Shown here one piece after another: positions 8,659 to 30,606 of a stretch of 32,000 bases of DNA. Position 1 is the stretch's first letter. Every line of letters starts with the position of its first letter. The notes beneath the pieces are model-generated. The model ran no database searches, had not been told where the DNA came from, and was given only the letters and a program-made list of their open reading frames with translations. The translations under genes and the position numbers were made by a program. Origin of the DNA: Pyrobaculum aerophilum str. IM2 (lineage in GTDB: Archaea; Thermoproteota; Thermoprotei; Thermoproteales; Thermoproteaceae); assembly GCF_000007225.1 (NCBI RefSeq), contig NC_003364.1, positions 960,001 through 992,000 on the forward strand, given 5' to 3'.

Positions 8659-9543
8659 TTAATGTTGTCCTATAAACGTCACTTCGCTTCTTAACAGTTC
8701 AGAAATAGACAACTGCTCATATCTCCCCCTTTCTGACAAGTGTAAAACCACGTACTTGTTATTAATACTAGTTACCGCCATTTTTTCGCCCTTTAAGACT
8801 ATAACATCGCCAGGTTTGTAAGTCGCGATTCTCACAGAATACGTCATATGGTATATCTTCCTGCCGTCTTTTACGCCAACAACCTTAGCCGTCTCTGTTA
8901 CGACGCTAGGGAATTGTCTGTGTATGACGTAAGCCAAATGTCTTGCGAGATTTGCATTTGTTGTATATATATCTATTCCATTTTTCAAATCTTTTATATC
9001 ACTTATAAAACCTATTTTTTTATCTTTAAGTTTATAAAGTTCTTGTTCTATTATGAAAATAATTTTCTTTTTAACGTCATTCTCTATACCTCTAGGATAC
9101 CCTCTAATTTGTAACACAGCGACTTCCCTTCTGCTTAACATCTCTCTACACGAGTTACAAATATCGTAGACGTACTCAAACGTTAAGACGTAAGTAAACA
9201 ATCTCGGCTCAATAGAGGGGTGGGGAGAGCCTTTGACCACTACTCTAGCCGTAAGGCCATCATAACTCTGAGACGCCTCTATTCTCTCTATCGCCCCGCT
9301 AACTGACGCCTTGTCTGACAAGACCTTTGCCGCCAACTCCTCCACGCCTCCCCTCCCCTCTCTAATCCACCTCCCTCTTATAAATAAAGCGCCGCAGTAC
9401 CTACACCTCAAGACTCTGGTTTCCTTTACCTTTACCAGTGGGTGTCTCTCAACGTAACAATCTTCGCACATGCCCTCAATTAGCCTATCAACTAGGCGTC
9501 CGCAAAACGGGCAAGGAATTTTAGCCACGTCTCTACCGGCCAC
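8659..9543 (-). CDS. NMD3-family protein (ribosome-associated, archaeal homologue)
   Basis: 294 aa with an N-terminal cluster of CxxC pairs (CPFCG, CEDC, CRYCG, CNSC), as in the NMD3 N-domain. GTG start. Confidence 0.75.
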   Translation of the reverse strand: MAGRDVAKIPCPFCGRLVDRLIEGMCEDCYVERHPLVKVKETRVLRCRYCGALFIRGRWIREGRGGVEELAAKVLSDKASVSGAIERIEASQSYDGLTARVVVKGSPHPSIEPRLFTYVLTFEYVYDICNSCREMLSRREVAVLQIRGYPRGIENDVKKKIIFIIEQELYKLKDKKIGFISDIKDLKNGIDIYTTNANLARHLAYVIHRQFPSVVTETAKVVGVKDGRKIYHMTYSVRIATYKPGDVIVLKGEKMAVTSINNKYVVLHLSERGRYEQLSISELLRSEVTFIGQH

Positions 9544-9591
9544 CCTCTAAATATTTTTTTACTTCTAAAGCTATGGCGTATGATAGCGGCG
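9542..9591. repeat. Direct repeat A: relic copy of the last 17 codons of the C5-MTase gene
   Basis: 46/50 identical to 14307-14356. Read on the minus strand it encodes PLSYAIALEVKKYLEG, the same as the MTase C-terminus. Confidence 0.85.
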
Positions 9592-9596
9592 TCCTC

Positions 9597-12524
9597 TTAA
9601 TTACTATTGTCAGCGCCAGCGCCTTGTTTATCACTATCAAGTTTTCCTCTGCGCCACTGGTCTACGGCGTCTTTAAGCGCCTTAAAGCGGCACAGGGCGT
9701 CTAGCTGGTCCGCGAGGAGGAACACTCTGCCCCTCTTAGCCTTTCCGGTCAGCGCCTTTAACACGGCGGCTTCCACATCGTCTTTGACCGTGAGTGTTGC
9801 CATTTCAAAGTAATACGTGGTCGTTGTATTGCCTTTTTTCTTTTGTTGCTTTTTCCAGTACCACTCTATTTTGAACTGTTTCCTCTCTCCCCCAACCTCG
9901 TACTCCGCGATAATGCGCAGGCGGCAGTCCCTTCCAGCGCAGTGGCTCACCGGCTGGCCGTTTTCCACAAATTCATACCGCAGATCTACAACGCGGGCAA
10001 TTAAGTTGCCCCCCTCGTCGTATACCGCCAGCGGAAGCTCCGCCGCTCCCTCCTCCCTCGCCGGAGTCAGAACCTCAATTAGCTTTTTCGCTGCGTCATC
10101 GCCGTGTCTGCGCTTCAAAACGTCCTCCAACTCCCTGATGAACCGCTCCGCCTCCACGTTGCCGCCCAGCGCCATACGCTGAATTTCGCGGAGGCCGTCG
10201 TAAGTGATGTAGATTATGTACTGTCCGCTCCACTTCACCGCGAAGTGCTTTCCCTCCGCCAGCCCCGCCGCCTTCAAGGCGTTTACGATGGCGTCTTTGT
10301 GGTCTTTTTTAACGCGGATTTCGCGCCTTTTATCGTAAACAGCGTAGTGCTCGCCTTTCTTCAGCCCGCTCTGCGCCAAAGTCTCAACGGCCTTGGCGTA
10401 TGCTTCTTTTGTAACGCGGATTTCGTAACCGCCATGCTCTTTCACCGTGAAGTGTATGCCCTCCTTCAGACCCCTCGCCTTTAATGCGTTTAAGGCGGCG
10501 TTTTTAGATGCCTCGCTAGTCGGAGTATATCTCACTTGTATTATATCGCTATACTTGTCTCTCGTCTTGTAATTAACCGAGAACTCCACGTCGGCGAATT
10601 TAACGGTGTTGGGCCCAGTCTCAATCTCTTTCACCACCTGTTTATACCTATTCTCGCTGATCAGCCCCTTGTCTTTAAGCTCGTCCACAAAGCTCCTCAC
10701 CGCGTTCAGCCAGCCGTTGTGGCGGATTGACGCAATGCCGTCGGTGTAGAGCTTGACTTTCCATACCTTACTTACGCGCTTAACCTCTGCCTCGCCGCCG
10801 AGGGCCCTAATGATAGAGGCCAGCCGTTCGGCGTTTTCGCGGGAGCCGCCGAATTTGGCATAAAGCTCAGTGCCGGTCCAGTATACTGTTATGTGCGCCA
10901 CTTCCTCACCGTTCAACTTGAAGCGAATTATGGCCTTTGGCCACTGCCCGCTTGTGTCCAAAGGTCCTTTCTCCACGGCGATGTTTTTGTAGACGTAGTC
11001 CTCTGCCATTGTAACAACTTCCTCTAGCTTTTTGAAAAACATTTCGTTTCTCACGTCGTAACCCCAGTCAATGCCGAATTTCCTTTTAACCGCCTCGCGG
11101 GTAACGACTTTAAACGCGTCGGCGAATTCTGTCAGGGCATCCCTAAGCTCGTGCAACGCGGGTAGCGCCGGCGTTACAGCCTCCAGTAAGCCGTTCAGCT
11201 CGGCGCCTTTGAAGGCAATATGGTGCGCGCCTCTGCCCCTATACACTGAGCTTGGCTTAAGGCCAAGCTCCTTCAGAGCCCACAGCCAGAAAGCGGTGAA
11301 GTGGTCGCGGGTCATAATCGGACTTTCCACGTGTTCAGGGCCGCCGATGAAAAGCAGAATTTCGTCTCTAAACACAGTCCCATCGTACAACACAGCGAAA
11401 ATCACCGCAAGGGCCGCCTCCTCTCTAGACAGTTCACCCATCTTGCGCGCCTCTACGGCATATGCCAGCGGGAGGAGGACGCGGAGGTATTTGCCCAGCT
11501 TGTCTACCTCCATTACCACCTTTTTCCTCTCTTCGTCCTTTTTCTCCTTTGCCTCCTCTTCTAGCTGTTTCCACAGTGCTAACAGCTCATTAACGCGCTC
11601 CCAGAACTCGCCGGCCGCCGTCTCCAAGGCCTTCTTTAATTCATCATTCATTTTAACATCAGTTAGAGCCACCTTCAGATCAACGCCGCCTTCCGACTGT
11701 TTGTTAGGTGTCAATAGATTTTCAAACACGGCGCGGCTTACACTCAGCACCTCGCGCACCGCCTCAGTGTACTTGCCCTCAACGCGCCACATCGGCTTTA
11801 GCCCCTCCTCGGAGGGGTATACTCTTACGAGCCCAATTCCGCCCCCAGCGTCGAGCTTAATTTCGCGCTCAGCCAGCGCCCAGTAGGTAAATGTCTGCGA
11901 GAGGTAAGAGGAGTCGCCGAGGACGTACTCACGTCCGGGGTATAGGACGGCGTCTGTGGGCAGTGCGCCGATTGTAATGGCCCTAGCCGTTTTCTTCACT
12001 ATTTTTCTCGTCTTTTTCACCGCTTTTACTGCCCTCTCCCACTCCCCTCCGCCAAGCCCCTCCAGTAGTTTAGAGCCGGAGGAGGCGGCCGCCGCCAAAT
12101 TAGCAACTTCTTTAAACAGCTCTACCACCTCTCCCTCCGCCGAAAGCGGTATTAGCCACTTGCCAGCCTCCCATGGGACTTTGAGGAGCTCGTGGCCGTT
12201 TTCTACAAATGTGGCGTATACGCGCCTTTTGCCGTTTTCTGTCTTCTCCTCTATGCGTACTTCCACGCCCTGTCTGCCGGCCAGTATTTCTCTCATTGCG
12301 GGTTCTATCAGTAGAGTGGCAATGCGGAAGGCCAGTTTTCTGGTCTCTGACAGCTTCTCATCACCGCTGGCTGATCTAAACACCTTGTAGAAGACGAAGG
12401 GTGTATTCCTAACAGCTGACGCAATGCTGAGAGTGCCGGCTATCTGCTCACCTTTCCCCGCCAACGCCCTCTCCATGGAGACGCCGAATAGGCCGCCAGT
12501 TACAAGCGATAGCAAAGCGGTCAC
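9597..12524 (-). CDS. paREP2b-like large repeat-family protein (probably the downstream part of a frameshift-split gene)
   Basis: 975-aa ORF, paralogous to 19203-21128 over its C-terminal two thirds. The GTG start has no promoter, and the frame stays open 186 nt upstream. The family name is from my memory of the P. aerophilum annotation. Confidence 0.7.
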   Translation of the reverse strand: MTALLSLVTGGLFGVSMERALAGKGEQIAGTLSIASAVRNTPFVFYKVFRSASGDEKLSETRKLAFRIATLLIEPAMREILAGRQGVEVRIEEKTENGKRRVYATFVENGHELLKVPWEAGKWLIPLSAEGEVVELFKEVANLAAAASSGSKLLEGLGGGEWERAVKAVKKTRKIVKKTARAITIGALPTDAVLYPGREYVLGDSSYLSQTFTYWALAEREIKLDAGGGIGLVRVYPSEEGLKPMWRVEGKYTEAVREVLSVSRAVFENLLTPNKQSEGGVDLKVALTDVKMNDELKKALETAAGEFWERVNELLALWKQLEEEAKEKKDEERKKVVMEVDKLGKYLRVLLPLAYAVEARKMGELSREEAALAVIFAVLYDGTVFRDEILLFIGGPEHVESPIMTRDHFTAFWLWALKELGLKPSSVYRGRGAHHIAFKGAELNGLLEAVTPALPALHELRDALTEFADAFKVVTREAVKRKFGIDWGYDVRNEMFFKKLEEVVTMAEDYVYKNIAVEKGPLDTSGQWPKAIIRFKLNGEEVAHITVYWTGTELYAKFGGSRENAERLASIIRALGGEAEVKRVSKVWKVKLYTDGIASIRHNGWLNAVRSFVDELKDKGLISENRYKQVVKEIETGPNTVKFADVEFSVNYKTRDKYSDIIQVRYTPTSEASKNAALNALKARGLKEGIHFTVKEHGGYEIRVTKEAYAKAVETLAQSGLKKGEHYAVYDKRREIRVKKDHKDAIVNALKAAGLAEGKHFAVKWSGQYIIYITYDGLREIQRMALGGNVEAERFIRELEDVLKRRHGDDAAKKLIEVLTPAREEGAAELPLAVYDEGGNLIARVVDLRYEFVENGQPVSHCAGRDCRLRIIAEYEVGGERKQFKIEWYWKKQQKKKGNTTTTYYFEMATLTVKDDVEAAVLKALTGKAKRGRVFLLADQLDALCRFKALKDAVDQWRRGKLDSDKQGAGADNSN
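10988..11432. repeat. 445-bp tract identical to 20609-21053
   Basis: Base-by-base comparison at an offset of 9621 found no mismatch. The flanks drop to roughly 70-75% identity by hand alignment. Confidence 0.9.
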
Positions 12525-12651
12525 TGTCCTCTCTCCTCTAGTGGCGTCTATCTTGGGAAGATCGTCTGCGGCGGCCTCCGCAAGCCTTATTACGTTCTCC
12601 GTAGCCGCTTTCAGCCTTTCGGCAATTCCGCTGTAACCAGCTCCCTCCAGC

Positions 12652-13680
12652 CTATATGCAATTCTGTCCAGCTCGTTGGTAACCTCCCTTCGCCCTTTCC
12701 GCGGCTTCTACTAACACGTTGAGGTCACCCCATACGTCGCTAAGGGCAAATCTGCCGCTTTTCACAGCTCCTTCCAGCCTTTCAAGCGCCTTGTAGGACT
12801 TGTTCTTCAGCTCTACAAACTCCCTCAAGTGGTTTAATAGCGTGAAGGAGGCTATTAGATATGCTATTCTGTCATCGTCATCTTCAAAGACCTTTACGCT
12901 CTTGCCGGTCTCCCTAGCGCCAAGTACTGCCAGAGCCCAAAGCGCCGCGGGATCTCTTTGCTCATACCACGCCTTAGAGGCCTCCTCAAGGGCCTTTTTG
13001 TAGTTGGCGGCTTTCATCGCCTGCACGTAACTCGTCAAGCGCCTTAACTCTAACACTGCATTTTCTATTTGCTTCTCATCCATCGCGTGTCTCAGCGTTG
13101 AGAAGGCGCTTACCGCCTTCTCCACAACGCCTTTGTCAAGGCCTAGCTGGGCGGCGCGCTCTACAATCTCTTTCTCGCTTGCTGTTTTTGTCAATACCGC
13201 ATTCCCTACTTCCTTCCACTTATCGCCAACGCCAGCCGCCTTTGCCAGTCCCGCTATCGCCCCGGCGTTAAGCGCTATGTGGTTCTGCCAAAGCGTGTAG
13301 TCCAGTTGTTGCGCCACTACCCACGCCATCAGCCCGGCCGCCGCGGCGGCCATTATGAACCAATGCGCTCTTACGTAGTCAAGGACTCTCGCCACCGCCT
13401 CTACAAACAGCTCGTAAAGCCTCTGCAACGTTATTCTCGCCTTTTCGAATACCTCCCTCGCGGCTTCATACGCCGCCTCGGCGGCCCTTCTTACGTACTC
13501 CACTGCCCTCTCAAAGGCCCCCTCCCTCGCCAGTACTACCGCCGCGGCCGTCGCTGACACAACAGCCGTTGAGTACAGCCCGTCGTGTAGCGCCGCGTAT
13601 CCGGCCAGGCCGGCGGCGGCTACAACTGCCGGCTTGACTGCCTCCTCTACCGCCGCGATGCATCCCGGCGCCTCTTCCAC
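12652..13680 (-). CDS. Ala-rich protein with hydrophobic segments; probable upstream part of the split paREP2b-like gene
   Basis: 342-aa ORF with a GTG start, 14-23 nt from the AT box TTTTTAAAAA (13694-13703). Its last 57 nt overlap the open upstream extension of the 975-aa frame. Confidence 0.5.
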   Translation of the reverse strand: MEEAPGCIAAVEEAVKPAVVAAAGLAGYAALHDGLYSTAVVSATAAAVVLAREGAFERAVEYVRRAAEAAYEAAREVFEKARITLQRLYELFVEAVARVLDYVRAHWFIMAAAAAGLMAWVVAQQLDYTLWQNHIALNAGAIAGLAKAAGVGDKWKEVGNAVLTKTASEKEIVERAAQLGLDKGVVEKAVSAFSTLRHAMDEKQIENAVLELRRLTSYVQAMKAANYKKALEEASKAWYEQRDPAALWALAVLGARETGKSVKVFEDDDDRIAYLIASFTLLNHLREFVELKNKSYKALERLEGAVKSGRFALSDVWGDLNVLVEAAERAKGGYQRAGQNCI

Positions 13681-13780
13681 GTATTTCCGCGCCTTTTTAA
13701 AAACAACTTAAGCGAGATTTAAGGCAATATTTTAACGCATACGCGCCATAGATTACATAAAGAACGAGGAGCCCCGCGTA

Positions 13781-14215
13781 TTGGAGTGGAGGAAGAGGGA
13801 GGAGGAGCAGAGGAGGCTTGAGCTTAAGAGTCAGGTAATGGCGGCGTTAAAGGACTGGTATCGCAGATGTTTTAAGTGGCCCATCATGCCGGGGGAGGAG
13901 GGCAAGGTAGTGAGAAGGCTAGAGCTTTACTACGGAATGTGCGAAATGGCTAAGGCCGTAATCGCCGAATACGGCGAAAAATACGCCGAGCCTCTAATCA
14001 GCGAGTATGCCCTTAGGCGCGCATTTTGGTGGGAAGGGGAATGGAGGGGGAAGCCCATGTCGTGTTTCGTGACGGAAAAGAAGGCCGTTTGCAAGGTGGG
14101 CGACAAGATGGCCACATTTTACGTATTTGACACGCCCCACGGCGTGTACCTAAGGCCAGAAATCAAGCTTGTAGACGACTGGATTAAAGTGGCGTATAGG
14201 GGCGATGACAGTTAA
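13781..14215 (+). CDS. paREP2a-like small repeat-family protein (short form)
   Basis: 144 aa. ...EYALRRAFWWEGEWRGKPMSCFVTEKKAVCKVG...GVYLRPEIKLVDDWIKVAYRGDDS recurs at 21128-21384, 21371-22204 and, degraded, at 16594-17012. The start is uncertain: TTG 13781 or ATG 13838. Confidence 0.6.
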   Translation: MEWRKREEEQRRLELKSQVMAALKDWYRRCFKWPIMPGEEGKVVRRLELYYGMCEMAKAVIAEYGEKYAEPLISEYALRRAFWWEGEWRGKPMSCFVTEKKAVCKVGDKMATFYVFDTPHGVYLRPEIKLVDDWIKVAYRGDDS

Positions 14216-14306
14216 GGCGACGTGCGTAAAAGTCCTCCTCCCAGAGGTTTTTGAACTGCCGCGGAGGTTTGGAGTGTCATGGGACTGTTTAACGCTACCT
14301 TCAACG
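14205..14306 (+). pseudogene. Truncated start of a second paREP2a-like unit (N-domain fragment)
   Basis: MTVKATCVKVLLPEVFELPRRFGVSWDCLT matches the N-terminus of the 277-aa ORF at 21371 (MEAVSVKECIRVKLPEAFELPRRFGVSWGCLT). It is cut off at the repeat B boundary. Confidence 0.55.
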
Positions 14307-15245
14307 ACCCTCTAAATATTTTTTAACCTCTAGGGCTATGGCGTATGATAGCGGCGGCGGGACGCTCTCGCCAACCTGGTTATACTGAGACTCCTTTGAG
14401 CCGAGGAATATATATCCGTCGGGATAGCCCATTAGCCTGGCCTGCTCCCGCACTGTTAATACCCTGTGCTCCTCGGGGTGTATAAACCGCCTAGAGCCCA
14501 TTACCGTGGGCGCTATGTCGTCCCACATGAGGCGTATATAATTTTCATAAAAGCCGCCTGCCCCTCTATATCTCATTAAGGCCTCGCCGGGCTTCAGCTT
14601 GGAAATTCTTTCTTGTTTCTTCGGGCTTAAAGTCGTAGTCTCGTGGTTGGGAACTATGCCGCTGTCAGGAGGAGGTAAGTCGCGCAACGCCTCTCTTACT
14701 GTAACCCGCCTAGACTTAACAGGTCTAATTTCTATATTTGATACAAATACCCTCCTTCTTCTACTAGGCACTCCGTAGTCCTCGGCGTGTAGTATATTAA
14801 AATAAACCTCGTATCCAACTCTCTTAAACTCCCTTTTAATGTAAGTCCTGAGAGGCTCTTCGGCGAGGGCGGCCACGTTCTCCATTACAAAGACCTTGGG
14901 CCCTATTTCGCCCACTAGCCTTATGAACTCTAAAGTTAATTGGCCCGCGGGGTCTGTGTAAAGCCTATCTGCCGGGTCCTCCATTCTATTGGGATTTGCC
15001 GCGGTGAACGGCTCGCAGGGCGGGCTACCGATAATTACATCGACATCACCCGCATATTTTAACAAATCCCCATAGTCTATATATCTGATGTCTTCTTGTA
15101 TAATGATTGTGTATCTGTGATTGGCGCTGTAAGTCCTCACGGCATCTCTGTCAATATCTACAGCAACAGCAATTTTAAACCCCGCCATTCTAAAGCCCAG
15201 CCCAAACCCGCCCCCGCCTGCGAATAAATCCACTGCGCTGTACAC
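14301..15245 (-). CDS. DNA (cytosine-5)-methyltransferase
   Basis: 314 aa with C5-MTase motifs in canonical order: I DLFAGGGGFGLGF, IV GSPPCEPFT (catalytic Cys), VI VFVMENV, VIII PSRRRRVFV and X GESVPPPL. GTG start with ATTATAAAC about 25 nt upstream. Confidence 0.9.
   Translation of the reverse strand: MYSAVDLFAGGGGFGLGFRMAGFKIAVAVDIDRDAVRTYSANHRYTIIIQEDIRYIDYGDLLKYAGDVDVIIGSPPCEPFTAANPNRMEDPADRLYTDPAGQLTLEFIRLVGEIGPKVFVMENVAALAEEPLRTYIKREFKRVGYEVYFNILHAEDYGVPSRRRRVFVSNIEIRPVKSRRVTVREALRDLPPPDSGIVPNHETTTLSPKKQERISKLKPGEALMRYRGAGGFYENYIRLMWDDIAPTVMGSRRFIHPEEHRVLTVREQARLMGYPDGYIFLGSKESQYNQVGESVPPPLSYAIALEVKKYLEGR
14307..14356. repeat. Direct repeat B (functional 3' end of the C5-MTase gene)
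   Basis: 46/50 identical to 9542-9591. Confidence 0.85.
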
Positions 15246-15462
15246 CTTTTACAAAAACTACGCAGTTTATAATGTCACCTCCCAATTACAGCCTTCCGGC
15301 GCAACGCCCAGCCGCCCTGCCGTGTAGAGAGCTGGTTGATGCTCTCTAAAAACCAAGTGGCGTTGTCCCCAACCAGCCTCTCCCAAGATCGCCGTAAGAG
15401 CATAAAATTGTAGATAGTGGGGACGGGGCATGTTCCACATTATATATTCCCTAGTAGTGAGT

Positions 15463-15479
15463 AAATTTTATAAATATAT
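15463..15479 (+). promoter_or_regulatory. TATA-like box for the PD-(D/E)XK gene
   Basis: AAATTTTATAAATATAT, 15-31 nt upstream of the ATG at 15494. Confidence 0.45.
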
Positions 15480-15493
15480 GACCAGCCCCGTTC

Positions 15494-16084
15494 ATGGGCT
15501 TTGCCAAGAGGCTGAAGTATCGCCTTAGTGATTTAATAAAACTAGAGAAGCCAGACGCCTTGAGCTCCCGCTATGGAAAGGCCTTTGAAAAGGCAGTGCT
15601 GGCGCTGATAAAGGCCAAGGACTCTGTAGCCGCTTTACGTACTTTTATTGAAAACTACGGCGAGCCGCACACCGGCGCCTTTAGTAAACTAATAAAACTA
15701 ATGCCCTGGGCGAAAAGAGTCGTAGAAATAGAGCCCGCGCCTCCCGTGTTTTTCCAACTAGACGGCGTCACTATAACAGCTCAAGCCGATTTCATTGTGA
15801 AATATTCAGATGGGAAGAATGAGCTAGTTGAGCTAAAGTCTCATATTCTGAAGAGGGGTGAGTGGAAAATAAAAGCTGAGTGGTCGCTCGCCACTAAAAT
15901 AATGCGCATGCTCTATAGAAAAGCGGGTTATGACTACCCGCTACGCCTAATTTATTTTGTGGAACGGGAAGACGGCGTCGTCACAGAAGAGGAGGTGTTT
16001 ATATACCCCAAAGACGAGAAAGACGACGAAACTCTCCTCAACGTCCTCCGCGAGAGGCTTAAAAAGGCTATTACAGGCAGGTAA
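15494..16084 (+). CDS. PD-(D/E)XK-type nuclease (candidate restriction endonuclease partner of the MTase)
   Basis: 196 aa. GKAFEKAV (helix with Glu), then ...TAQADFIV... and ...NELVELKSH... give D-x(n)-E-x-K spacing. It lacks the Cys cluster of Cas4. Divergent from the MTase across a 248-bp spacer. Confidence 0.55.
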   Translation: MGFAKRLKYRLSDLIKLEKPDALSSRYGKAFEKAVLALIKAKDSVAALRTFIENYGEPHTGAFSKLIKLMPWAKRVVEIEPAPPVFFQLDGVTITAQADFIVKYSDGKNELVELKSHILKRGEWKIKAEWSLATKIMRMLYRKAGYDYPLRLIYFVEREDGVVTEEEVFIYPKDEKDDETLLNVLRERLKKAITGR

Positions 16085-16364
16085 ACCTCTCTTTAGCTAA
16101 TGCGAATGCTTGCTTTATAATCGACGTTGCGACGTCTAGTTTATCTAAGTGGCGTGGTTGAATAACTGCGTTTTCATCGCCAAGCATAAACTCTATACTA
16201 CACTCTTCATCTGACCAGGAAAAGACTATGAAAACAAAGAAATCCTCACGGAGCTGGATCTGTCCAAGCGCCTCATACTGTCTCCACTCCACTGTGAAGG
16301 CCTCTATCTCCTTGTCTATCCTCTCCTCAAGCTCTCTAAAAAATTGTTCCACTCTCTGGCGCAT
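16071..16364 (-). CDS. Hypothetical acidic protein
   Basis: 97-aa ORF with an AT box (TTTAAATTTATTTA) about 25 nt upstream. Convergent with the nuclease gene, overlapping it by 14 nt. Confidence 0.4.
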   Translation of the reverse strand: MRQRVEQFFRELEERIDKEIEAFTVEWRQYEALGQIQLREDFFVFIVFSWSDEECSIEFMLGDENAVIQPRHLDKLDVATSIIKQAFALAKERFTCL

Positions 16365-16407
16365 GTATCTGGCTTGATCTCTCTTTAAATTTATTTATCG
16401 TTTATAC

Positions 16408-16560
16408 CAGCGGGTTTCACCCCCTCCACTTGTCTATGGCGTCTTTCAGCGCCTTAAACCTGCGCAGGGCGTTCAGCTCGTCGGCTAAGAGATCCACTTG
16501 GACCTCTTCGCCTTCACCGTCAGCGCTTTCAACACGGTTGCCTCCACCCCGTCTTTGGCC
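16408..16560 (-). pseudogene. paREP2b-like C-terminal fragment
   Basis: The minus strand reads ...ATVLKALTVKAKRSKWISLADELNALRRFKALKDAIDKWRG*. This matches the C-termini of both large genes (e.g. AAVLKALTGKAKRGRVFLLADQLDALCRFKALKDAVDQWRRG in the 975-aa ORF). Confidence 0.65.
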
Positions 16561-16593
16561 TTTGAAGAGATCGCCTACAGAGGCCATTAAGAG

Positions 16594-17012
16594 CGAGAGG
16601 GAGTGGCGCGAGCTGAGGGATCAAGTATACCGCGCCGTGGCGGAGTGGCATAGGCAGTGTCTCGGATACTAACCGTGGTCTGAGGTGGAGGTTGTGAATC
16701 GGCATGAGGAGTACGCGGCGATGTGCCAGCTGTACCGCCTTGTCAAGGAGGAGCTGGGGGATAAGGCGTCGCTGTACGCCTCTGACTTCTCCCTCAGGTG
16801 CGTTTTTTAGTGGGAGGGGGGAGTGGCTGGGGCGTCCGCGTCGTGTCTCATAGCGGCATATAACGCCTTATGCCGCGTGGGGAGCGCCAAAATGGAATTT
16901 CGCGCTTATTATGTGAAAAACGGCGTATATCTAGAGCCGAAAATACTCCTGTACAGAGACAGAGTAAAGCGGCGCATAGGGGAGGTGGGGGCAGTTTGGA
17001 GGCAAGAAGCCG
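16594..17012 (+). pseudogene. paREP2a-like remnant with in-frame stops and frameshift
   Basis: EREWRELRDQVYRAVAEWHRQC..*..EEYAAMCQLY...SLRCVF*WEGG, then in another frame ...SCLIAAYNALCRVGSAKMEFRAYYVKNGVYLEPKILLY. It is collinear with the 13781-14215 protein. Confidence 0.65.
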
Positions 17013-17063
17013 CCGCTACAACTCACGAACTTGATTTTTTAAAGTTTTAATTCCTAACCTCAA

Positions 17064-18611
17064 GTGCCTGTGATAGACGTCGCAAAAAGCGACTTGGAGA
17101 GACTCACAGGATTAAAATACGAGGAAATCGCTAAGCTCTTTGAGTATATCAAAGGGGAAATAGAGAGCGACTCAGGCGAGAGGCTTAGAATTGAGGTGAC
17201 CCACGACAGGCCAGATCATTTCTCGGCGGAGGGACTGGCCAAGACCCTCAAGGGAATTGCCGAAATAGAGGTGGGCCTCCCCCGGATTTCGCTGGGGCGC
17301 TCTTCAATAAGGCTAGTGGCGGAGAGCATTACTGAAAGGCCTTATATTGCCATGGCCGTTGTAAGAAATGTTAGGCTCGACGAGGAGGCAATTAAGCAAA
17401 TGATACAGCTACAGGAAAAGCTACACGAGACTTATGGGAGGGGGAGGCGGAAAATAGCCATTGGCTTTTACGACGTTTCAAAAATAAAGCCTCCCATATA
17501 CTACCGGAGGATTTCCCAAGAGGATGAGTACATACCGCTGGGATTTCAGAAGCCCGTCAAAGTCAGGGAGATGTACGAGCTCACAGAACAGGGGAGGAGG
17601 TACAGCGGCCTAATTAATAGGGAAAATCCGCCTGCCCTAGTGGACGCCTCGGGGCAAATAATGGTCGTGATCCCAGTCTTAGGCTCTGAGTGTTGTAAAA
17701 TCACCGAGGCCACTAGAGACGTCTTAATTGACGTCACTGGGACAGATCACCGCGCGGTGGCCAACGCGCTCTCAATTCTCATATATTCCCTTCTAGAGCG
17801 CAGCGGCTCAAAGGAGGTGGAAATTGTAGAGGGGGGGACGGGCTACTCCCACGAATACGTGAAAATTTACGTCGACGAGAGAGCAGTCAGCGAGTTTTTA
17901 GGCGTTAAAATAGCCCACGAGGATTTTATTAAATACATCAAAAAGGCGCGTTTTGACTACCAGGAGGGAGCTGTTATTATTCCGCCTTACAGGATTAACG
18001 TCTTGTCGTGGGTAGATGTGGCTGAAGACGTCGCTATTGTGATGGGATATAACCAAATGCCTAGAGAGGTGCCGGAAATCCCGTCAGCTGGAAGACGGCA
18101 TAGAACAGAGGTAATTACTCTGGAGGTGCGCAAGTCTATGCTGTCCATGGGCTTTACCGAGTTGAATAACTACGTGCTTACAGACGAGGCTGTGGCCGAG
18201 GTGTGTAGCCCCGCCCGCGTCGCCAACCCCATCTCTGAGTTGTATACAACAATTAGATGTTCTATAATCACGCAATTAATCTCGGCGGCTTCGGCGCTGA
18301 AGAGGAGGGAGACGAAAATATTTGAAGTTGGAGAGGTAGTAAGGGAGGGGAGAACCGTTAGGGCGCTGGCGTTTCTCATCAGTCGAGACGGCGCCACGCT
18401 TACAGACGGGCTCTCTGTCGTGAAGAGCCTATGTAAACGCTTAGGATTAAAGTGTGAATTCTTCCCAGCGGAAGCCAAGTGGGCCCTTCCGAATAGAATG
18501 GCTGAAGTGAGAGGCGAGATAACAGGCTATATTGCCGAAGTTAACCCCGACGTGTTAACAGCCCTAAAACACGCGGTGCCCACCGTCGTCGCCGAACTGT
18601 ACATAGGCTAA
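17064..18611 (+). CDS. pheT: Phenylalanine--tRNA ligase, beta subunit (archaeal type)
   Basis: 515 aa. The start MPVIDVAKSDLERLTG is typical of archaeal PheT (B3_4/B5 layout). GTG start, AT box at 17036-17053. Confidence 0.9.
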   Translation: MPVIDVAKSDLERLTGLKYEEIAKLFEYIKGEIESDSGERLRIEVTHDRPDHFSAEGLAKTLKGIAEIEVGLPRISLGRSSIRLVAESITERPYIAMAVVRNVRLDEEAIKQMIQLQEKLHETYGRGRRKIAIGFYDVSKIKPPIYYRRISQEDEYIPLGFQKPVKVREMYELTEQGRRYSGLINRENPPALVDASGQIMVVIPVLGSECCKITEATRDVLIDVTGTDHRAVANALSILIYSLLERSGSKEVEIVEGGTGYSHEYVKIYVDERAVSEFLGVKIAHEDFIKYIKKARFDYQEGAVIIPPYRINVLSWVDVAEDVAIVMGYNQMPREVPEIPSAGRRHRTEVITLEVRKSMLSMGFTELNNYVLTDEAVAEVCSPARVANPISELYTTIRCSIITQLISAASALKRRETKIFEVGEVVREGRTVRALAFLISRDGATLTDGLSVVKSLCKRLGLKCEFFPAEAKWALPNRMAEVRGEITGYIAEVNPDVLTALKHAVPTVVAELYIG

Positions 18612-18638
18612 ATCTTAAATAGGACTAATACACTACAC

Positions 18639-19001
18639 TTGATGACAGACGAAATAGACTCCCTTCTCAGGAAAAAGGCATTGGAGCTCGCCAAGATGAG
18701 AATCCAAGAGAGCGGGCCAAAGCAAAAGGCCTTATCCGGTGATGAGGCGATCCAAATTGTTAGAAAAATTGTAAAGGGGGAAAGGGCCAGTGAAATAATT
18801 GACAACGCCCTATCACTGTATAGTCAACAGGCGATTGCCTTGTTCAAGAAGCTAGCCGAGCTCCACCTCCAAGGCGTAATTAAAGAGCTCGCAGATTATG
18901 AACTTTACCAGATGTTATTAAGACTCGGCATGAGAGTGCCCGTGAAGACTGAAATAAAAATTGTGAGACACGGCAGGGAGTACAAACTGGGAGAGTCCTA
19001 G
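18639..19001 (+). CDS. PDCD5/TFAR19-like dsDNA-binding protein
   Basis: 120 aa. SLLRKKALELAKMR... and ...LAELHLQGVIKE.LADYELYQMLLRLG...EIKIVR follow the COG2118 pattern as I remember it. Confidence 0.5.
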   Translation: MMTDEIDSLLRKKALELAKMRIQESGPKQKALSGDEAIQIVRKIVKGERASEIIDNALSLYSQQAIALFKKLAELHLQGVIKELADYELYQMLLRLGMRVPVKTEIKIVRHGREYKLGES

Positions 19002-19008
19002 CTCAGAT
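18989..19008. repeat. 20-bp direct repeat, left copy (3' end of the PDCD5-like gene)
   Basis: GGGAGAGTCCTAGCTCAGAT versus GGGAGAGTCTTAACTCAGAT at 22321-22340, 18/20 identical. Confidence 0.75.
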
Positions 19009-19202
19009 TTAGTGTGAAAAACAACGCATAGAGGAGATAGAGGTGGTTAAGGCGACGTGTAAAAAGCGCCTAAGACCTAGGGTTGAGGATTTCTAGAGTC
19101 CCGCCTCCAACGGCCCACTCCCCATCGCTACGTCTCTCGAGCTTAATGCCGTGAGACATAACATTCCATCGTAGAAGTGGAGGAATCAAAACTTTCTACG
19201 TT

Positions 19203-21128
19203 CTAATTGTCGCTCCTCTGTCCCTGTCCTTGCGAACTAGCCGGTTTTCCCTCTCTCCACTTGTCAATGGCGTCTTTTAAGGCCTTAAAGCGGCGCAAGG
19301 CGTCTAGCTGGTCGGCGTAGAGGTATACTCTGCCTCTCTTCGCCTCTTTTCCTGTCAGCGTTTCCAACACGGCCGCCTCTACTTCGTCTTTTACCGTTGG
19401 CCGTGCTATTTCGTAATAGTACGTGATAATCGCGTCGCCCTTCTTTTCCCGCTTCTCTGCCCAATACCACTCCATCTTGAACTGTCTCCTCTCGCCGCTG
19501 GGCAATTCGTATTCTACGATGATGCGCAGGCGGCAGTCCTCACCGGCGCATTGGCTCACTGGCTGGCTCGCCAGCCGCTTGCTCCTCTGTTTTCCTTTCA
19601 CGAATTCACACTTCAAATCTACAACGCGGGCGATTAAGTTGCCCCTATCGTCGTAAACTGCCAGTGGCAGATCTACAGTCCCCTCTTCCCTCGCCGGCCT
19701 CAGAACCTCTGTCAGCTTTTTCGCCGCGCCATCGCCGTGTCTACGCCTCAAAACATCCTCTAGCTCCCTGATGAACTTTTCAGCCTCCATATCGCCGTTT
19801 GACGCCATGCGTTGAATTTCGCGAAGGCCGTCGTAAGTGATGTAGACTACGTAGTATCTGCTACTCTTGACGGTGAAGTCTCTGCCCTCTTTCAGCCCCG
19901 CCGCCTTTAGGGCGTTTACAATAACGTCTTTTTGTTCCGCCTTGACGCTAATTATGCGCCATTTGCCGTAAACGGAGTAGTGTTTGCCCTCTTCCAGCCC
20001 GCTATGTACAAGGGCATCAATAGCCTTTACGAAAGCCTCTTTCGTAACACGAATTTCGTAACGTTCAGTGCCCTCTGTAGTAACCGTGAAGTGTACTCCC
20101 TCCCTCAGACCCCTTGCCATTAAGGCGTTTACGGCGGCGTTTTTAGCGTTCTCGTTGCGCGGATGATATTTTACCATTATTTTGTTTTCATAATTAACCG
20201 TGAATTCAACGCCGGCGAATTTAACGGTGTTGGGGCCGGTCTCTAGGTCCCTCACTAACTGTTCGTACTTATCTTTGTCGATTAACCCCTTGCCGTAAAG
20301 CTCGTCCACAAAGCCCCTCACCGCGTTTAGCCAGCCGTCATGGCGAATTGCTATGATGTCGTCAGTAGTGAGCCAAGTTCTCCATACCTTACCTATGCGT
20401 TTAACCTCCGCCTTACCTCCAAGCGCTCTGATAATAGAGGCCAACCTTTCGGCGTTTTCGTGAGAGCCGCCGAACTGGGCTTGTAGCTCCCTGCCAGTCC
20501 AGTACACGGTTATGTACGCCACCTCCTCCCCTCCCAACTTAAAGTGTATTACGGCCTTTGGTTGCTTACCGCTTGTATCTAACGGCCACCTCTCCACTGT
20601 GACGTTTCTGTAGACGTAGTCCTCTGCCATTGTAACAACTTCCTCTAGCTTTTTGAAAAACATTTCGTTTCTCACGTCGTAACCCCAGTCAATGCCGAAT
20701 TTCCTTTTAACCGCCTCGCGGGTAACGACTTTAAACGCGTCGGCGAATTCTGTCAGGGCATCCCTAAGCTCGTGCAACGCGGGTAGCGCCGGCGTTACAG
20801 CCTCCAGTAAGCCGTTCAGCTCGGCGCCTTTGAAGGCAATATGGTGCGCGCCTCTGCCCCTATACACTGAGCTTGGCTTAAGGCCAAGCTCCTTCAGAGC
20901 CCACAGCCAGAAAGCGGTGAAGTGGTCGCGGGTCATAATCGGACTTTCCACGTGTTCAGGGCCGCCGATGAAAAGCAGAATTTCGTCTCTAAACACAGTC
21001 CCATCGTACAACACAGCGAAAATCACCGCAAGGGCCGCCTCCTCTCTAGACAGCTCTCCCCTTCTGTACGCCTCCACGGCGTACGCCAGAGGCAAGAGAA
21101 CGTGGAAATATTTAGGCAAAAATAGCAT
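19203..21128 (-). CDS. paREP2b-like protein, N-terminally truncated copy (possibly not expressed)
   Basis: 641-aa ORF collinear with residues ~345-975 of the 975-aa ORF. Its ATG is created at the deletion junction, and no AT box lies upstream. Confidence 0.6.
   Translation of the reverse strand: MLFLPKYFHVLLPLAYAVEAYRRGELSREEAALAVIFAVLYDGTVFRDEILLFIGGPEHVESPIMTRDHFTAFWLWALKELGLKPSSVYRGRGAHHIAFKGAELNGLLEAVTPALPALHELRDALTEFADAFKVVTREAVKRKFGIDWGYDVRNEMFFKKLEEVVTMAEDYVYRNVTVERWPLDTSGKQPKAVIHFKLGGEEVAYITVYWTGRELQAQFGGSHENAERLASIIRALGGKAEVKRIGKVWRTWLTTDDIIAIRHDGWLNAVRGFVDELYGKGLIDKDKYEQLVRDLETGPNTVKFAGVEFTVNYENKIMVKYHPRNENAKNAAVNALMARGLREGVHFTVTTEGTERYEIRVTKEAFVKAIDALVHSGLEEGKHYSVYGKWRIISVKAEQKDVIVNALKAAGLKEGRDFTVKSSRYYVVYITYDGLREIQRMASNGDMEAEKFIRELEDVLRRRHGDGAAKKLTEVLRPAREEGTVDLPLAVYDDRGNLIARVVDLKCEFVKGKQRSKRLASQPVSQCAGEDCRLRIIVEYELPSGERRQFKMEWYWAEKREKKGDAIITYYYEIARPTVKDEVEAAVLETLTGKEAKRGRVYLYADQLDALRRFKALKDAIDKWREGKPASSQGQGQRSDN
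20609..21053. repeat. 445-bp tract identical to 10988-11432
   Basis: See the partner entry at 10988-11432. Confidence 0.9.
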
Positions 21129-21384
21129 TGGCTGAGTACGGCATTAAGCCAGACAGCCCGATAATCAGCGAATACGCCCTTAGGCGCGCATTTTGGTGGA
21201 ATGGGGAATGGAGGGGAAGGCCAATGTCCTGTTTCGTGACCGACTTGAGGGCGTTTTGTAAAGTGGGCAAAAAATGGCAGCGTTTTACGTATTCGACACG
21301 CCCCATGGCGTATACCTCAGGCCGGAAATCAAGCTAATAGACGAGTGGATTAAGGTGGCCCACAGGGGAGATGGAGGCGGTTAG
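21128..21384 (+). pseudogene. paREP2a-like fragment, 5'-truncated and frameshifted
   Basis: AEYGIKPDSPIISEYALRRAFWWNGEWRGRPMSCFVTDLRAFCKVGKK, then the frame is lost at the A6 run (21269-21274). With A7 it would read MAAFYVFDTPHGVYLRPEIKLIDEWIKVAHRGDGGG*. Confidence 0.7.
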
Positions 21385-22204
21385 CGTTAAGGAGTGTATA
21401 CGCGTTAAACTGCCAGAGGCCTTTGAGCTACCGAGGAGGTTTGGAGTGTCCTGGGGGTGCCTAACACAGGGCGCCTTTAGGGGTGTGGACGCCGTTGTGG
21501 CTGAGGGGAAGGGGAGGGGCGTTTATTTCCGCTACGTGCTACCCTACGACGCAAACGCCAAACGCTATATGGCGGAGTACGGGCAGAGGGAAAGGAGGGA
21601 GGGCTATGGCATATCGCCAACGCTGGCGGAGGCCCTATACGAGCTGGCTGAGAGGCATGAGGTAGAAGTCGTGATAGAGAAAACACAATACAAAACGTAT
21701 TACTACGCCGTTGTAGACGGCGTGAAGATAGACGGCAGACTTTGCTATAGGGAAAGTCTCAGGGACTGTGTCAATAAGGTAGTGAGGTGGGTTAAAGAGG
21801 AGAAAAAGTGGAGAGAATCATTGCGACTACTGAGGATTAGGGAGGAAGTGCTGAACGCAGTGGCGGAGTGGTATTTCCGCTGTTTTGGAGAAACTGCAAA
21901 CCAGCTGAAAGTGGCCAAGAGGCTAGAGGAATACCACACGCTGTGTCAAATGCGTAGCGCCGCGAAGAGGGAATTCGGAGTGGCGCCAACGGAGAGGGCC
22001 CTAAGAAGGGCATTTTGGTGGGACGGGGAGTGGGGAGGGAGGGCGTTGTCGTGTTTCGTGACGGAAAGGGAGGCGGTGTGCAGATGGGGAGGCGCGAAGT
22101 GGAAATTCACAGTGAGGGCGGGAACAGACGGCGTATATATTAAGCCTGAGAGCCCACTATACCAAGAGTGGATTAAGGCGGCACATAGGGGTAACGACAG
22201 TTAA
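21371..22204 (+). CDS. paREP2a-like protein, long form (extra ~130-aa N-domain)
   Basis: 277 aa. The C-terminal half matches 13781-14215 (ALRRAFWWDGEWGGRALSCFVTEREAVC...GVYIKPESPLYQEWIKAAHRGNDS). The N-terminal domain matches the fragment at 14205-14306. Confidence 0.65.
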   Translation: MEAVSVKECIRVKLPEAFELPRRFGVSWGCLTQGAFRGVDAVVAEGKGRGVYFRYVLPYDANAKRYMAEYGQRERREGYGISPTLAEALYELAERHEVEVVIEKTQYKTYYYAVVDGVKIDGRLCYRESLRDCVNKVVRWVKEEKKWRESLRLLRIREEVLNAVAEWYFRCFGETANQLKVAKRLEEYHTLCQMRSAAKREFGVAPTERALRRAFWWDGEWGGRALSCFVTEREAVCRWGGAKWKFTVRAGTDGVYIKPESPLYQEWIKAAHRGNDS

Positions 22205-22320
22205 GGCGACGAGAGAAGAGCCGAGTGATGAGAGGGAGTGGAAGAGGCTGTGAGAACGCCTCCACAGACCCTGTTACTCTAATTATGCGGACTCTCTTGC
22301 CCAGCTCTGCGAAGTAGTTA

Positions 22321-22340
22321 GGGAGAGTCTTAACTCAGAT
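22321..22340. repeat. 20-bp direct repeat, right copy (3' end of the Zn-ribbon gene)
   Basis: 18/20 identical to 18989-19008. Confidence 0.75.
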
Positions 22341-22581
22341 ACAGGGCATATAGCTCTTCCATCAGACCGCGCCAGTTGAATAGCCTAACAGAGTAGTTGA
22401 CATATCTCCTTGCCAATTCTCTCTTCTCCCTCTTTACATAACGCAAACAGCGCTTACAGCCAAACCAGACGTATGTGTTATCCTCAACGATCTCCATAGC
22501 ACTGCCACAGAGGGGGCATCTACTGGCCACCTCAACAGCCAGGAGATCCATACACACTATCATCCCGCCATTTAAAGCCAC
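22330..22581 (-). CDS. Small zinc-ribbon protein
   Basis: 83 aa with CPLCG...x17...CKRC. The start is GTG 22581 or ATG 22563. Confidence 0.5.
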   Translation of the reverse strand: MALNGGMIVCMDLLAVEVASRCPLCGSAMEIVEDNTYVWFGCKRCLRYVKREKRELARRYVNYSVRLFNWRGLMEELYALYLS

Positions 22582-23421: not shown

Positions 23422-23861
23422 ATGTCCACGACGTATTGGACAAGCCAGTAATCCTCCACCTTTTTGATCTCCATCATGTGATAAGTCATCGCCTTCACGA
23501 TAAGCCCCGTAAAGCCGTGTTTATTAATGTCGTACTTCTCCCCGTAGAGTAGAGCCCTTATTGCGTATCCATTCCCCTTCTCTAGTTTTACTTCAATCCT
23601 CCTGCTTAGGGCGAACTTCTCGGCGTCGAATAAGTACAACAGCTCGTCTATCCAGCGGAATAAGAGCCCCTCTAAATCCTCATATTCTACGGCGACCTCT
23701 CTGCTCTCTTTTGGCTCAACGCGGCTACTGTAGTAAGTCAAATCGGCCAGCGCCAAGGCTGCGTTTTTAAACGCCTCCTCTAGCGTGCATCCATACGCCT
23801 GGATTAAGACGTCTGCTGTATGCTCGCCGTATTTATAATCGCCAGGCTTGCCGCAAGGCAC
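23418..23861 (-). CDS. Archease
   Basis: 147 aa with the N-terminal archease signature [30 protein letters not shown]. Confidence 0.85.
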
Positions 23862-23906
23862 AATTTGTGAGAAAATCTGTTTTAAATCATTGACCTTGAC
23901 GATTAT

Positions 23907-30479: not shown

Positions 30480-30606
30480 ATGGGCATTTTAATATTAATG
30501 AATAATTTACATTGACTTTAGATAATTGCGTAAGTAGTTTTCACATAAGTCGAATCAGATAGGATGCCGACAGTCATACCTCCTCCGGGTTCTAATCATC
30601 ACAAAA

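Follow-up and report, generated by a model that had tools for sequence, protein, structure and literature searches.

A 20-bp direct repeat bordering a PaREP2 cassette of Pyrobaculum aerophilum as the probable target-site duplication of an ancestral gene junction

Classical DNA transposons and insertion sequences duplicate a fixed 2-15 bp of their target. Casposons and Cas1-type integration produce duplications of 14-15 bp, with CRISPR repeat duplication at ~24-48 bp, and archaeal integrative elements make use of attachment (att) sites of 40-60 bp. LAGLIDADG homing endonucleases cut with a 4-nt stagger, and to our knowledge homing creates no target duplications. The locus described here belongs to PaREP2, a repeat of P. 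aerophilum str. IM2, and lies in a stretch of 32,000 nucleotides (contig NC_003364.1, positions 960,001 to 992,000; hereafter the window, with positions counted from its first letter) which holds two full PaREP2 cassettes (1 and 3) and one remnant (cassette 2). We estimate a probability of roughly 85% that cassette 3 is a PaREP2 insertion made in the P. aerophilum lineage at the converging, overlapping stop codons of two genes, and that the 20-bp sequence found at both of its borders is the target-site duplication made at insertion, probably through a break with widely staggered cuts whose ends were then filled in.

A large part of what is strain-specific in the DNA of Pyrobaculum genomes consists of PaREP2 genes. 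Their products, PaRep2a and PaRep2b, are the Pyrobaculum aerophilum repeat family 2 proteins; homologues come nearly all from P. aerophilum and related metagenome-assembled genomes (MAGs), and the element is greatly expanded in P. aerophilum specifically. In the genome paper of P. oguniense, PaREP2b-type repeats were termed “putative transposons” and tied to the regions in which P. oguniense and P. arsenaticum differ (PMC3558965); the paREP2 of that paper are the same protein families as those discussed here. The searchable literature yielded no account of PaREP2 borders, of target duplications or of excision. The filled and empty sites compared below at base level, with their duplications of 20, 46 and 50 bp, give for the first time here concrete evidence of PaREP2 inserting as a discrete unit.

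The features at the borders of cassette 3 are as follows.

19009-22320: cassette 3, a PaREP2 insertion of 3,312 bp
18989-19008: left 20-bp copy; contains the final codons of the 119-aa gene with their stop, and 9 nt that match the Ser codon and stop of the Zn-ribbon gene (other strand)
22321-22340: right 20-bp copy; contains the final codons of the Zn-ribbon gene with their stop, and 9 nt that match the GES codons of the 119-aa gene; with two later transitions in the window's lineage
18642-19001, plus strand: conserved gene of 119/120 amino acids (aa), downstream of pheT
22330-22581, minus strand: small Zn-ribbon gene, 83 aa as called; orthologues start at an internal Met, giving ~73 aa

The two 20-mers, GGGAGAGTCCTAGCTCAGAT on the left and GGGAGAGTCTTAACTCAGAT on the right, agree at 18 of 20 positions and lie exactly where a sequence-only reading of the window had placed them; outside them similarity ends abruptly on either side. 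The left copy ends the plus-strand 119-aa gene (...KLGES-stop) and the right copy the minus-strand Zn-ribbon gene (...ALYLS-stop), as that reading had it, and it was also correct in that the mismatches at positions 10 (C/T) and 13 (G/A) affect, in either frame, only third codon positions or stop codons. As it stated, both genes could be terminated by either copy. This holds because the third positions of the two overlapping frames coincide, but it needs no special cause, as selection on the one functional gene suffices. The right copy also contains GGGAGAGTC, the counterpart of the conserved Gly-Glu-Ser codons of the 119-aa gene, whose end is now 3.3 kb away.

By an analytic estimate, comparing 32 kb with 32 kb should give a match of 18/20 about once, which is what could be said for a chance similarity of two gene ends. 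This match, however, sits exactly at both cassette borders. Within 320-nt zones centred on these borders the 20-mer pair is the single match of at least 18/20, and no match of this quality was obtained from 300 shuffles, nor from 1,500 control pairs of real zones chosen at random in the window. The right copy moreover holds the GES codons as they occur in the outgroup junction. The control zone pairs and the full identity of the repeat in a sister lineage (see below) effectively refute a chance match; its probability is negligible, and chance is excluded as the origin of the 18/20 identity.

The empty state of the site was obtained from three comparison genomes retrieved with the 119-aa protein as anchor, namely P. 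oguniense TE7, Pyrobaculum sp. WP30 and a Pyrobaculum MAG. Gene order over ~14 genes is kept in all three, and all three cassettes of the window are absent from them, with no remnants. The sequence-only reading had expected relatives to hold a single junction with overlapping stops between genes that are still neighbours. This is what was found: in 3/3 genomes the 119-aa and Zn-ribbon genes lie directly tail to tail and share a single copy of the junction, in which the TAG of the plus strand and the CTA of the minus strand share CTAG. The junction of P. oguniense, GAGTCCTAGCT, agrees with the left copy of the window through the terminal Ser codon of the Zn-ribbon gene, and the reconstructed empty site of cassette 3 reads AAACTGGGAGAGTCCTAGCTCAGATACAGGG. 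The 20-mer is the duplicate of this ancestral gene junction, produced by the arrival of the cassette. Duplication of the one ancestral copy (GGGAGAGTCCTAGCTCAGAT) left both genes with a complete 3' end.

A sister lineage, represented by two P. aerophilum-group assemblies ~97% identical to the window (L034, L036), carries cassette 3 at the same borders, and here both border copies read GGGAGAGTCCTAGCTCAGAT with 20/20 identity. This implies that the two mismatches of the window arose later, as transitions (C>T and G>A) of the right copy. Both are silent for the Zn-ribbon gene and, because the third codon positions of the overlapping frames coincide, silent in the other frame too. The earlier proposal that the cassette entered a tail-to-tail junction and duplicated it is thus supported by the empty sites, by the perfect repeat of the sister lineage and by the 46- and 50-bp duplications at other insertions.

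Cassette 3 is present in every P. aerophilum-type contig examined, and no empty site was seen among contigs that carry an identical 119-aa or Zn-ribbon protein and extend past the junction. The single-copy junctions of the other species could be deletion scars, left where a cassette ancestral to the genus was lost independently. That loss between flanking repeats does occur is clear at cassette 1, for which single-copy alleles of L and R type, each the same as one of the two copies in the filled allele, are found in a star-like strain set (see below). Three species would, however, have to have lost three cassettes at three separate junctions with no remnants, while the expansion of PaREP2 is specific to P. 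aerophilum and the restriction of the cassettes to the P. aerophilum group already suggests a derived clade. Ancestral presence is therefore highly improbable, and would in any case change the timing only, as the 20-mer would remain the duplication of a gene junction by an earlier insertion.

Further evidence on the right border of cassette 3 comes from assembly breaks. Contigs of five Logan samples stop at 22291, which lies 30 nt (k-1, with k = 31) inside the cassette from its border at 22320|22321; six fetched loci show this end (L017, L020, L021, L024, L025 and L040), with L040 being the same contig as L020. Such ends are the signature of an assembler that passes from a unique flank into DNA with another context in the sample, and they locate the change from repeated to unique DNA right at the edge of the 20-mer. 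It follows that the 30-mer 22291-22320 has a second genomic context, although none was found in the fetched loci, in a metagenome scan (zero hits) or in a look-up of PaRep2a.

The sequence-only reading had drawn a parallel with a 50-bp repeat at cassette 1, and at this cassette the filled and empty states can be compared at single-base resolution. The relevant features are the following.

9592-14306: cassette 1, a PaREP2 insertion of 4,715 bp, present or absent among strains that are >99.5% identical
9542-9591: left (“L”) 50-bp copy, in the NMD3 promoter region
14307-14356: right (“R”) 50-bp copy, encoding the C-terminus of a DNA methylase

Contigs that carry the identical 119-aa protein prove to be near-isogenic, with >99.5% identity to the window (L007-L013, L048-L057). 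In seven contigs without cassette 1, alignment to the window runs up to 9591 and resumes from 14307, with exactly 50 bp common to both parts, so that each empty site holds exactly one 50-mer and the proposed parallel stands. The L and R copies of the window differ at four positions, all within 10 bp. At the filled left border the L version is found in the window and in all six further contigs that reach this border, and at the right border the R version is found in the window and in all three further contigs that reach it. The single-copy empty sites are purely L in five contigs and purely R in two, with a chimera in none, as expected if recombination between the copies removed the cassette through a crossover on either side of the mismatch cluster. 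Because the near-isogenic strains form a star-like set with private single-nucleotide polymorphisms, this loss has probably occurred more than once.

The four differences between L and R are all synonymous in the methylase frame and occupy four consecutive codons (p about 0.004). They adjoin, on its upstream side, the TATA box of the displaced NMD3 promoter, and the R version is nearer than L to the outgroup sequences. This silent cluster may stem from silent retuning of the promoter, from selection during repeated cycling between the filled and the empty state, or from a footprint of immunity to a nuclease.

The same observations could be explained by a circular form of the cassette which carries a copy of the junction and integrates at att-like repeats, either by a site-specific or by a homology-driven reaction. 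Gain and loss of cassette 1 are precise at the 50-bp repeats. Both versions occur as single copies, and the constant order of the filled allele, with L at the left border and R at the right, would also follow if a circle of one allele integrated into a chromosome of the other. With all four differences synonymous, both versions look as though they had evolved as coding sequence, and repeats of 46-50 bp are similar in length to archaeal att sites. Yet no tyrosine or serine recombinase or integrase-like domain was detected in the cassettes, and PaRep2b was not found on any virus or plasmid. As each cassette has its own target-derived repeat, there is no common attP, and a circle would still require an initial duplication that put the target sequence on the element. 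A circular intermediate is therefore improbable as an account of these repeats, and duplication of the target at insertion is preferred.

Duplication of the target at insertion is not confined to cassettes 1 and 3. Two more sites in the window are of interest.

23844-23889: 46-bp target, empty in the window and present on both sides of the insert in the strain of contigs L019 and L039; divergent promoter region of Archease and OMPdecase
16365-17063: cassette 2, a decayed PaREP2 remnant consisting of a C-terminal piece of PaRep2b and pieces of PaRep2a

At the first site, both borders were recovered from two contigs of sample ERZ936123. On the Archease side, L019 agrees with the window up to position 23889 and then continues into PaRep2b (1,266 aa), whereas L039 passes from PaRep2a sequence into the window at 23844. 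At the second site, other species have a bidirectional intergenic promoter region of 45-46 bp. Both flanks of cassette 2 align to this single TATA-containing intergenic region, giving a degenerate repeat of ~25 bp (p about 0.04), and with a TATA-containing copy on both flanks each of the divergent genes kept its promoter. The length of the duplication is thus not fixed (20, about 25, 46 and 50 bp), and as the four repeats are unrelated in sequence to each other, they are not carried by the element but derived from the target.

No terminal inverted repeats and no shared ends were found among five cassette borders. Homology between cassettes is internal only and stops at differing distances from the borders, and the left edge of cassette 3 carries a remnant of a PaRep2a 3' end. 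Taken together this suggests that the inserted DNA is an arbitrary slice of a PaREP2 array.

The most probable course of insertion is as follows. A break with its two strand cuts 20-50 nt apart would expose single-stranded overhangs, whose fill-in would leave a copy of the target at each end of the incoming DNA; the latter would be an arbitrary slice of a PaREP2 array with no fixed ends. Afterwards the long duplicate copies permit loss, and possibly regain, of the cassette through recombination between them. PaRep2b is the obvious candidate for the enzyme that makes the break. The polymorphism of cassette 1 and the seeming fixation of cassette 3 can be attributed to the difference between copies of 50 bp and copies of 20 bp with two mismatches. 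At cassette 3, a duplication of only the 4 bp of CTAG would suffice to keep both stop codons, so that the length of 20 bp reflects the mechanism and not selection alone.

The AlphaFold model of PaRep2b is confident (mean predicted local distance difference test, pLDDT, of 84) and consists of repeated beta-beta-alpha modules. In PDB as well as in a viral structure library it matches LAGLIDADG homing endonucleases best, though not significantly (E of ~1e-3 to 5e-2, template modelling (TM) score < 0.3). An N-terminal alpha-beta-beta-alpha-beta-beta-alpha unit (residues 28-115) contains an Asp42-Gly43 pair that is invariant in 20 sequences and lies at the end of the first helix (28-40), followed by a beta-hairpin. 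For this N-terminal domain, modelled by itself, the best natural matches are WhiA and the TliVMA intein endonuclease (E >= 0.2). A search of PDB sequences with PaRep2b gave no match, and no sequence similarity to LAGLIDADG proteins was found in Pfam or among PDB sequences. The likeness is therefore a signal in a predicted fold and is to be taken as a lead only. Residues ~300-445 of PaRep2b form four tandem beta-beta-alpha modules in the model, which also appear as DNA repeats spaced 207-213 nt.

Several observations weigh against duplication by a widely staggered break. Flanking repeats are not universally detectable at PaREP2 cassettes. The sequence-only reading counted on them around other copies, which holds for cassette 1 (50 bp), for the L019/L039 insertion (46 bp) and weakly for cassette 2 (~25 bp), but not for four cassettes elsewhere in P. 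aerophilum genomes; these four compact cassettes (in L044, L045 and L047) have no flanking repeat above the shuffle background, with the limits that their exact borders are not fixed and that there are no empty sites for them. The left copies of both polymorphic insertions contain clustered changes that are not expected from a plain duplication and later neutral decay. In the L copy of cassette 1 these are the four synonymous changes within 10 bp in otherwise identical flanks, and in the Archease-side copy of the 46-mer they are seven changes within 20 bp, next to 2.6 kb identical to the window. Duplications of 20-50 bp are also far from the fixed 2-15 bp of transposases. Finally, no catalyst could be assigned to the staggered-cut step: profile searches with PaRep2a and PaRep2b matched their own families alone, with no nuclease, transposase, integrase or tyrosine/serine recombinase, and Pfam, NCBIfam, PADLOC and PHROGs gave no function for PaRep2a, PaRep2b or a 342-aa open reading frame (ORF) of cassette 1, and PDB sequences gave none for the first two.

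For the seven changes in the 46-mer, import of the L019 insertion together with divergent flanking DNA was considered and is ruled out, as the 2.6-kb flank is identical and the changes are confined to 20 bp.

How PaREP2 relates to the described systems can now be considered. It resembles classical transposons in being multi-copy, in its insertion polymorphism between strains and species and in the direct target duplication at both borders. A target duplication with single-copy empty sites and a presence/absence polymorphism were both found, whereas conserved termini, a transposase and a fixed duplication length were not: the duplication varies over 20-50 bp, terminal inverted repeats or conserved ends are absent, and no DDE, HUH, serine or tyrosine transposase was detected. 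Cas1-type integration is alike in that a long duplication arises there when the two strands are cleaved, or undergo strand transfer, at widely separated points. In contrast to casposons, PaREP2 cassettes contain no Cas1 or family-B polymerase, and they have neither a fixed duplication length nor terminal inverted repeats.

Archaeal integrative elements of the SSV and pTN3 types share with PaREP2 a block of DNA that lies between direct repeats of ~20-50 bp, restores gene ends and is lost precisely. An att-bounded element would be expected to encode its own tyrosine or serine recombinase, and related elements to have the same att core at all insertions. PaREP2 cassettes have no integrase, the repeat differs at each site, and their targets are junctions and promoters of protein genes and not tRNA genes. 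Free-standing LAGLIDADG homing endonuclease genes are similar as selfish cassettes between host genes, and a possible further likeness lies in the recurrent top structural matches and in the invariant Asp-Gly at the end of the first helix; the matches of PaRep2b are non-significant (E >= 1e-3 and TM < 0.3, or E >= 0.2 for the domain alone) and unaccompanied by sequence similarity.

Target-site duplication in itself is ordinary. What sets this element apart from characterised transposons, casposons and integrase-type elements is the combination of long, variable duplications, no defined ends and no known recombinase, and the duplications point to a mechanism that differs from the short stagger of constant length in known transposases. 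Their length explains why neighbouring genes stay intact after insertion into overlapping gene ends or shared promoters, and it explains clean loss, which leads to presence/absence polymorphism among near-identical strains. A tentative and rather doubtful extension is that PaREP2 constitutes an uncharacterised class of archaeal mobile element, in which slices of an array would enter intergenic junctions at staggers of 20-50 nt with the help of a possibly LAGLIDADG-related PaRep2b, cassettes would cycle in and out of the chromosome by way of their long duplications, and the silent clusters would mark promoter retuning or immunity to re-cleavage. The defined target sequences, together with PaRep2b and its invariant Asp42-Gly43 as a candidate protein, are on offer for experiment.

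The genes and gene remnants inside cassette 3 are the following.

19203-21128, minus strand: PaRep2b gene, 641 aa, a short form of the family (PF07775, E = 2.4e-270, full-length profile match)
21371-22204, plus strand: PaRep2a gene, 277 aa (PF07903, E = 8.9e-58)
21128-21337, plus strand: PaRep2a fragment, a 69-aa ORF upstream of the full PaRep2a (PF07903, E = 3.2e-23)
19026-19058, plus strand: degenerate PaRep2a 3' end (..GGTGGTTAAGGCGACG) at the left edge of the cassette, compared with repeat family D7

A divergent PaRep2a next to PaRep2b is found in cassette 3, and the same layout recurs in cassette 1 and in L045 and L047. Long forms of the PaRep2b family reach ~1,270-1,350 aa, and the 641-aa protein of cassette 3 is without the N-terminal half. 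The 342-aa ORF of cassette 1 (12652-13680) is fused to PaRep2b in long forms: together with the 975-aa PaRep2b of that cassette (9597-12524) it corresponds to one ORF of 1,266 aa in L019 (764-4564), so that either the gene of cassette 1 has been split or the long form is the intact one. Outside the cassette, the 119-aa protein encoded downstream of pheT is conserved in 4/4 Pyrobaculum genomes compared. The label “PDCD5-like” that the sequence-only reading had given it found no support in Pfam, in NCBIfam or in a profile search of PDB sequences.

All PaREP2 insertions of a ~35-kb region share one orientation: the minus-strand PaRep2b has its 3' end towards the left border, and the plus-strand PaRep2a lies at the right border. 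This applies to the interval 9592-22320, to the insertions at 23889 and 30586, and beyond 32000 (L026, L029). The insertion at 30586 comes from a further strain (L016, 1-1995), in which the border of a PaRep2b of at least 1,161 aa lies ~107 bp upstream of the citrate synthase start; one side of it was recovered. The density of insertions in this region looks high for the genome.

Within PaRep2b, patches of dense differences separate strains that are otherwise near-identical (window 20636-20964, and also in L019), and the cassette 3 of the sister lineage contains a patch that resembles cassette 1 (L034:3257-3353). To judge from the sequences compared, both kinds of patch point to gene conversion between PaREP2 paralogues.

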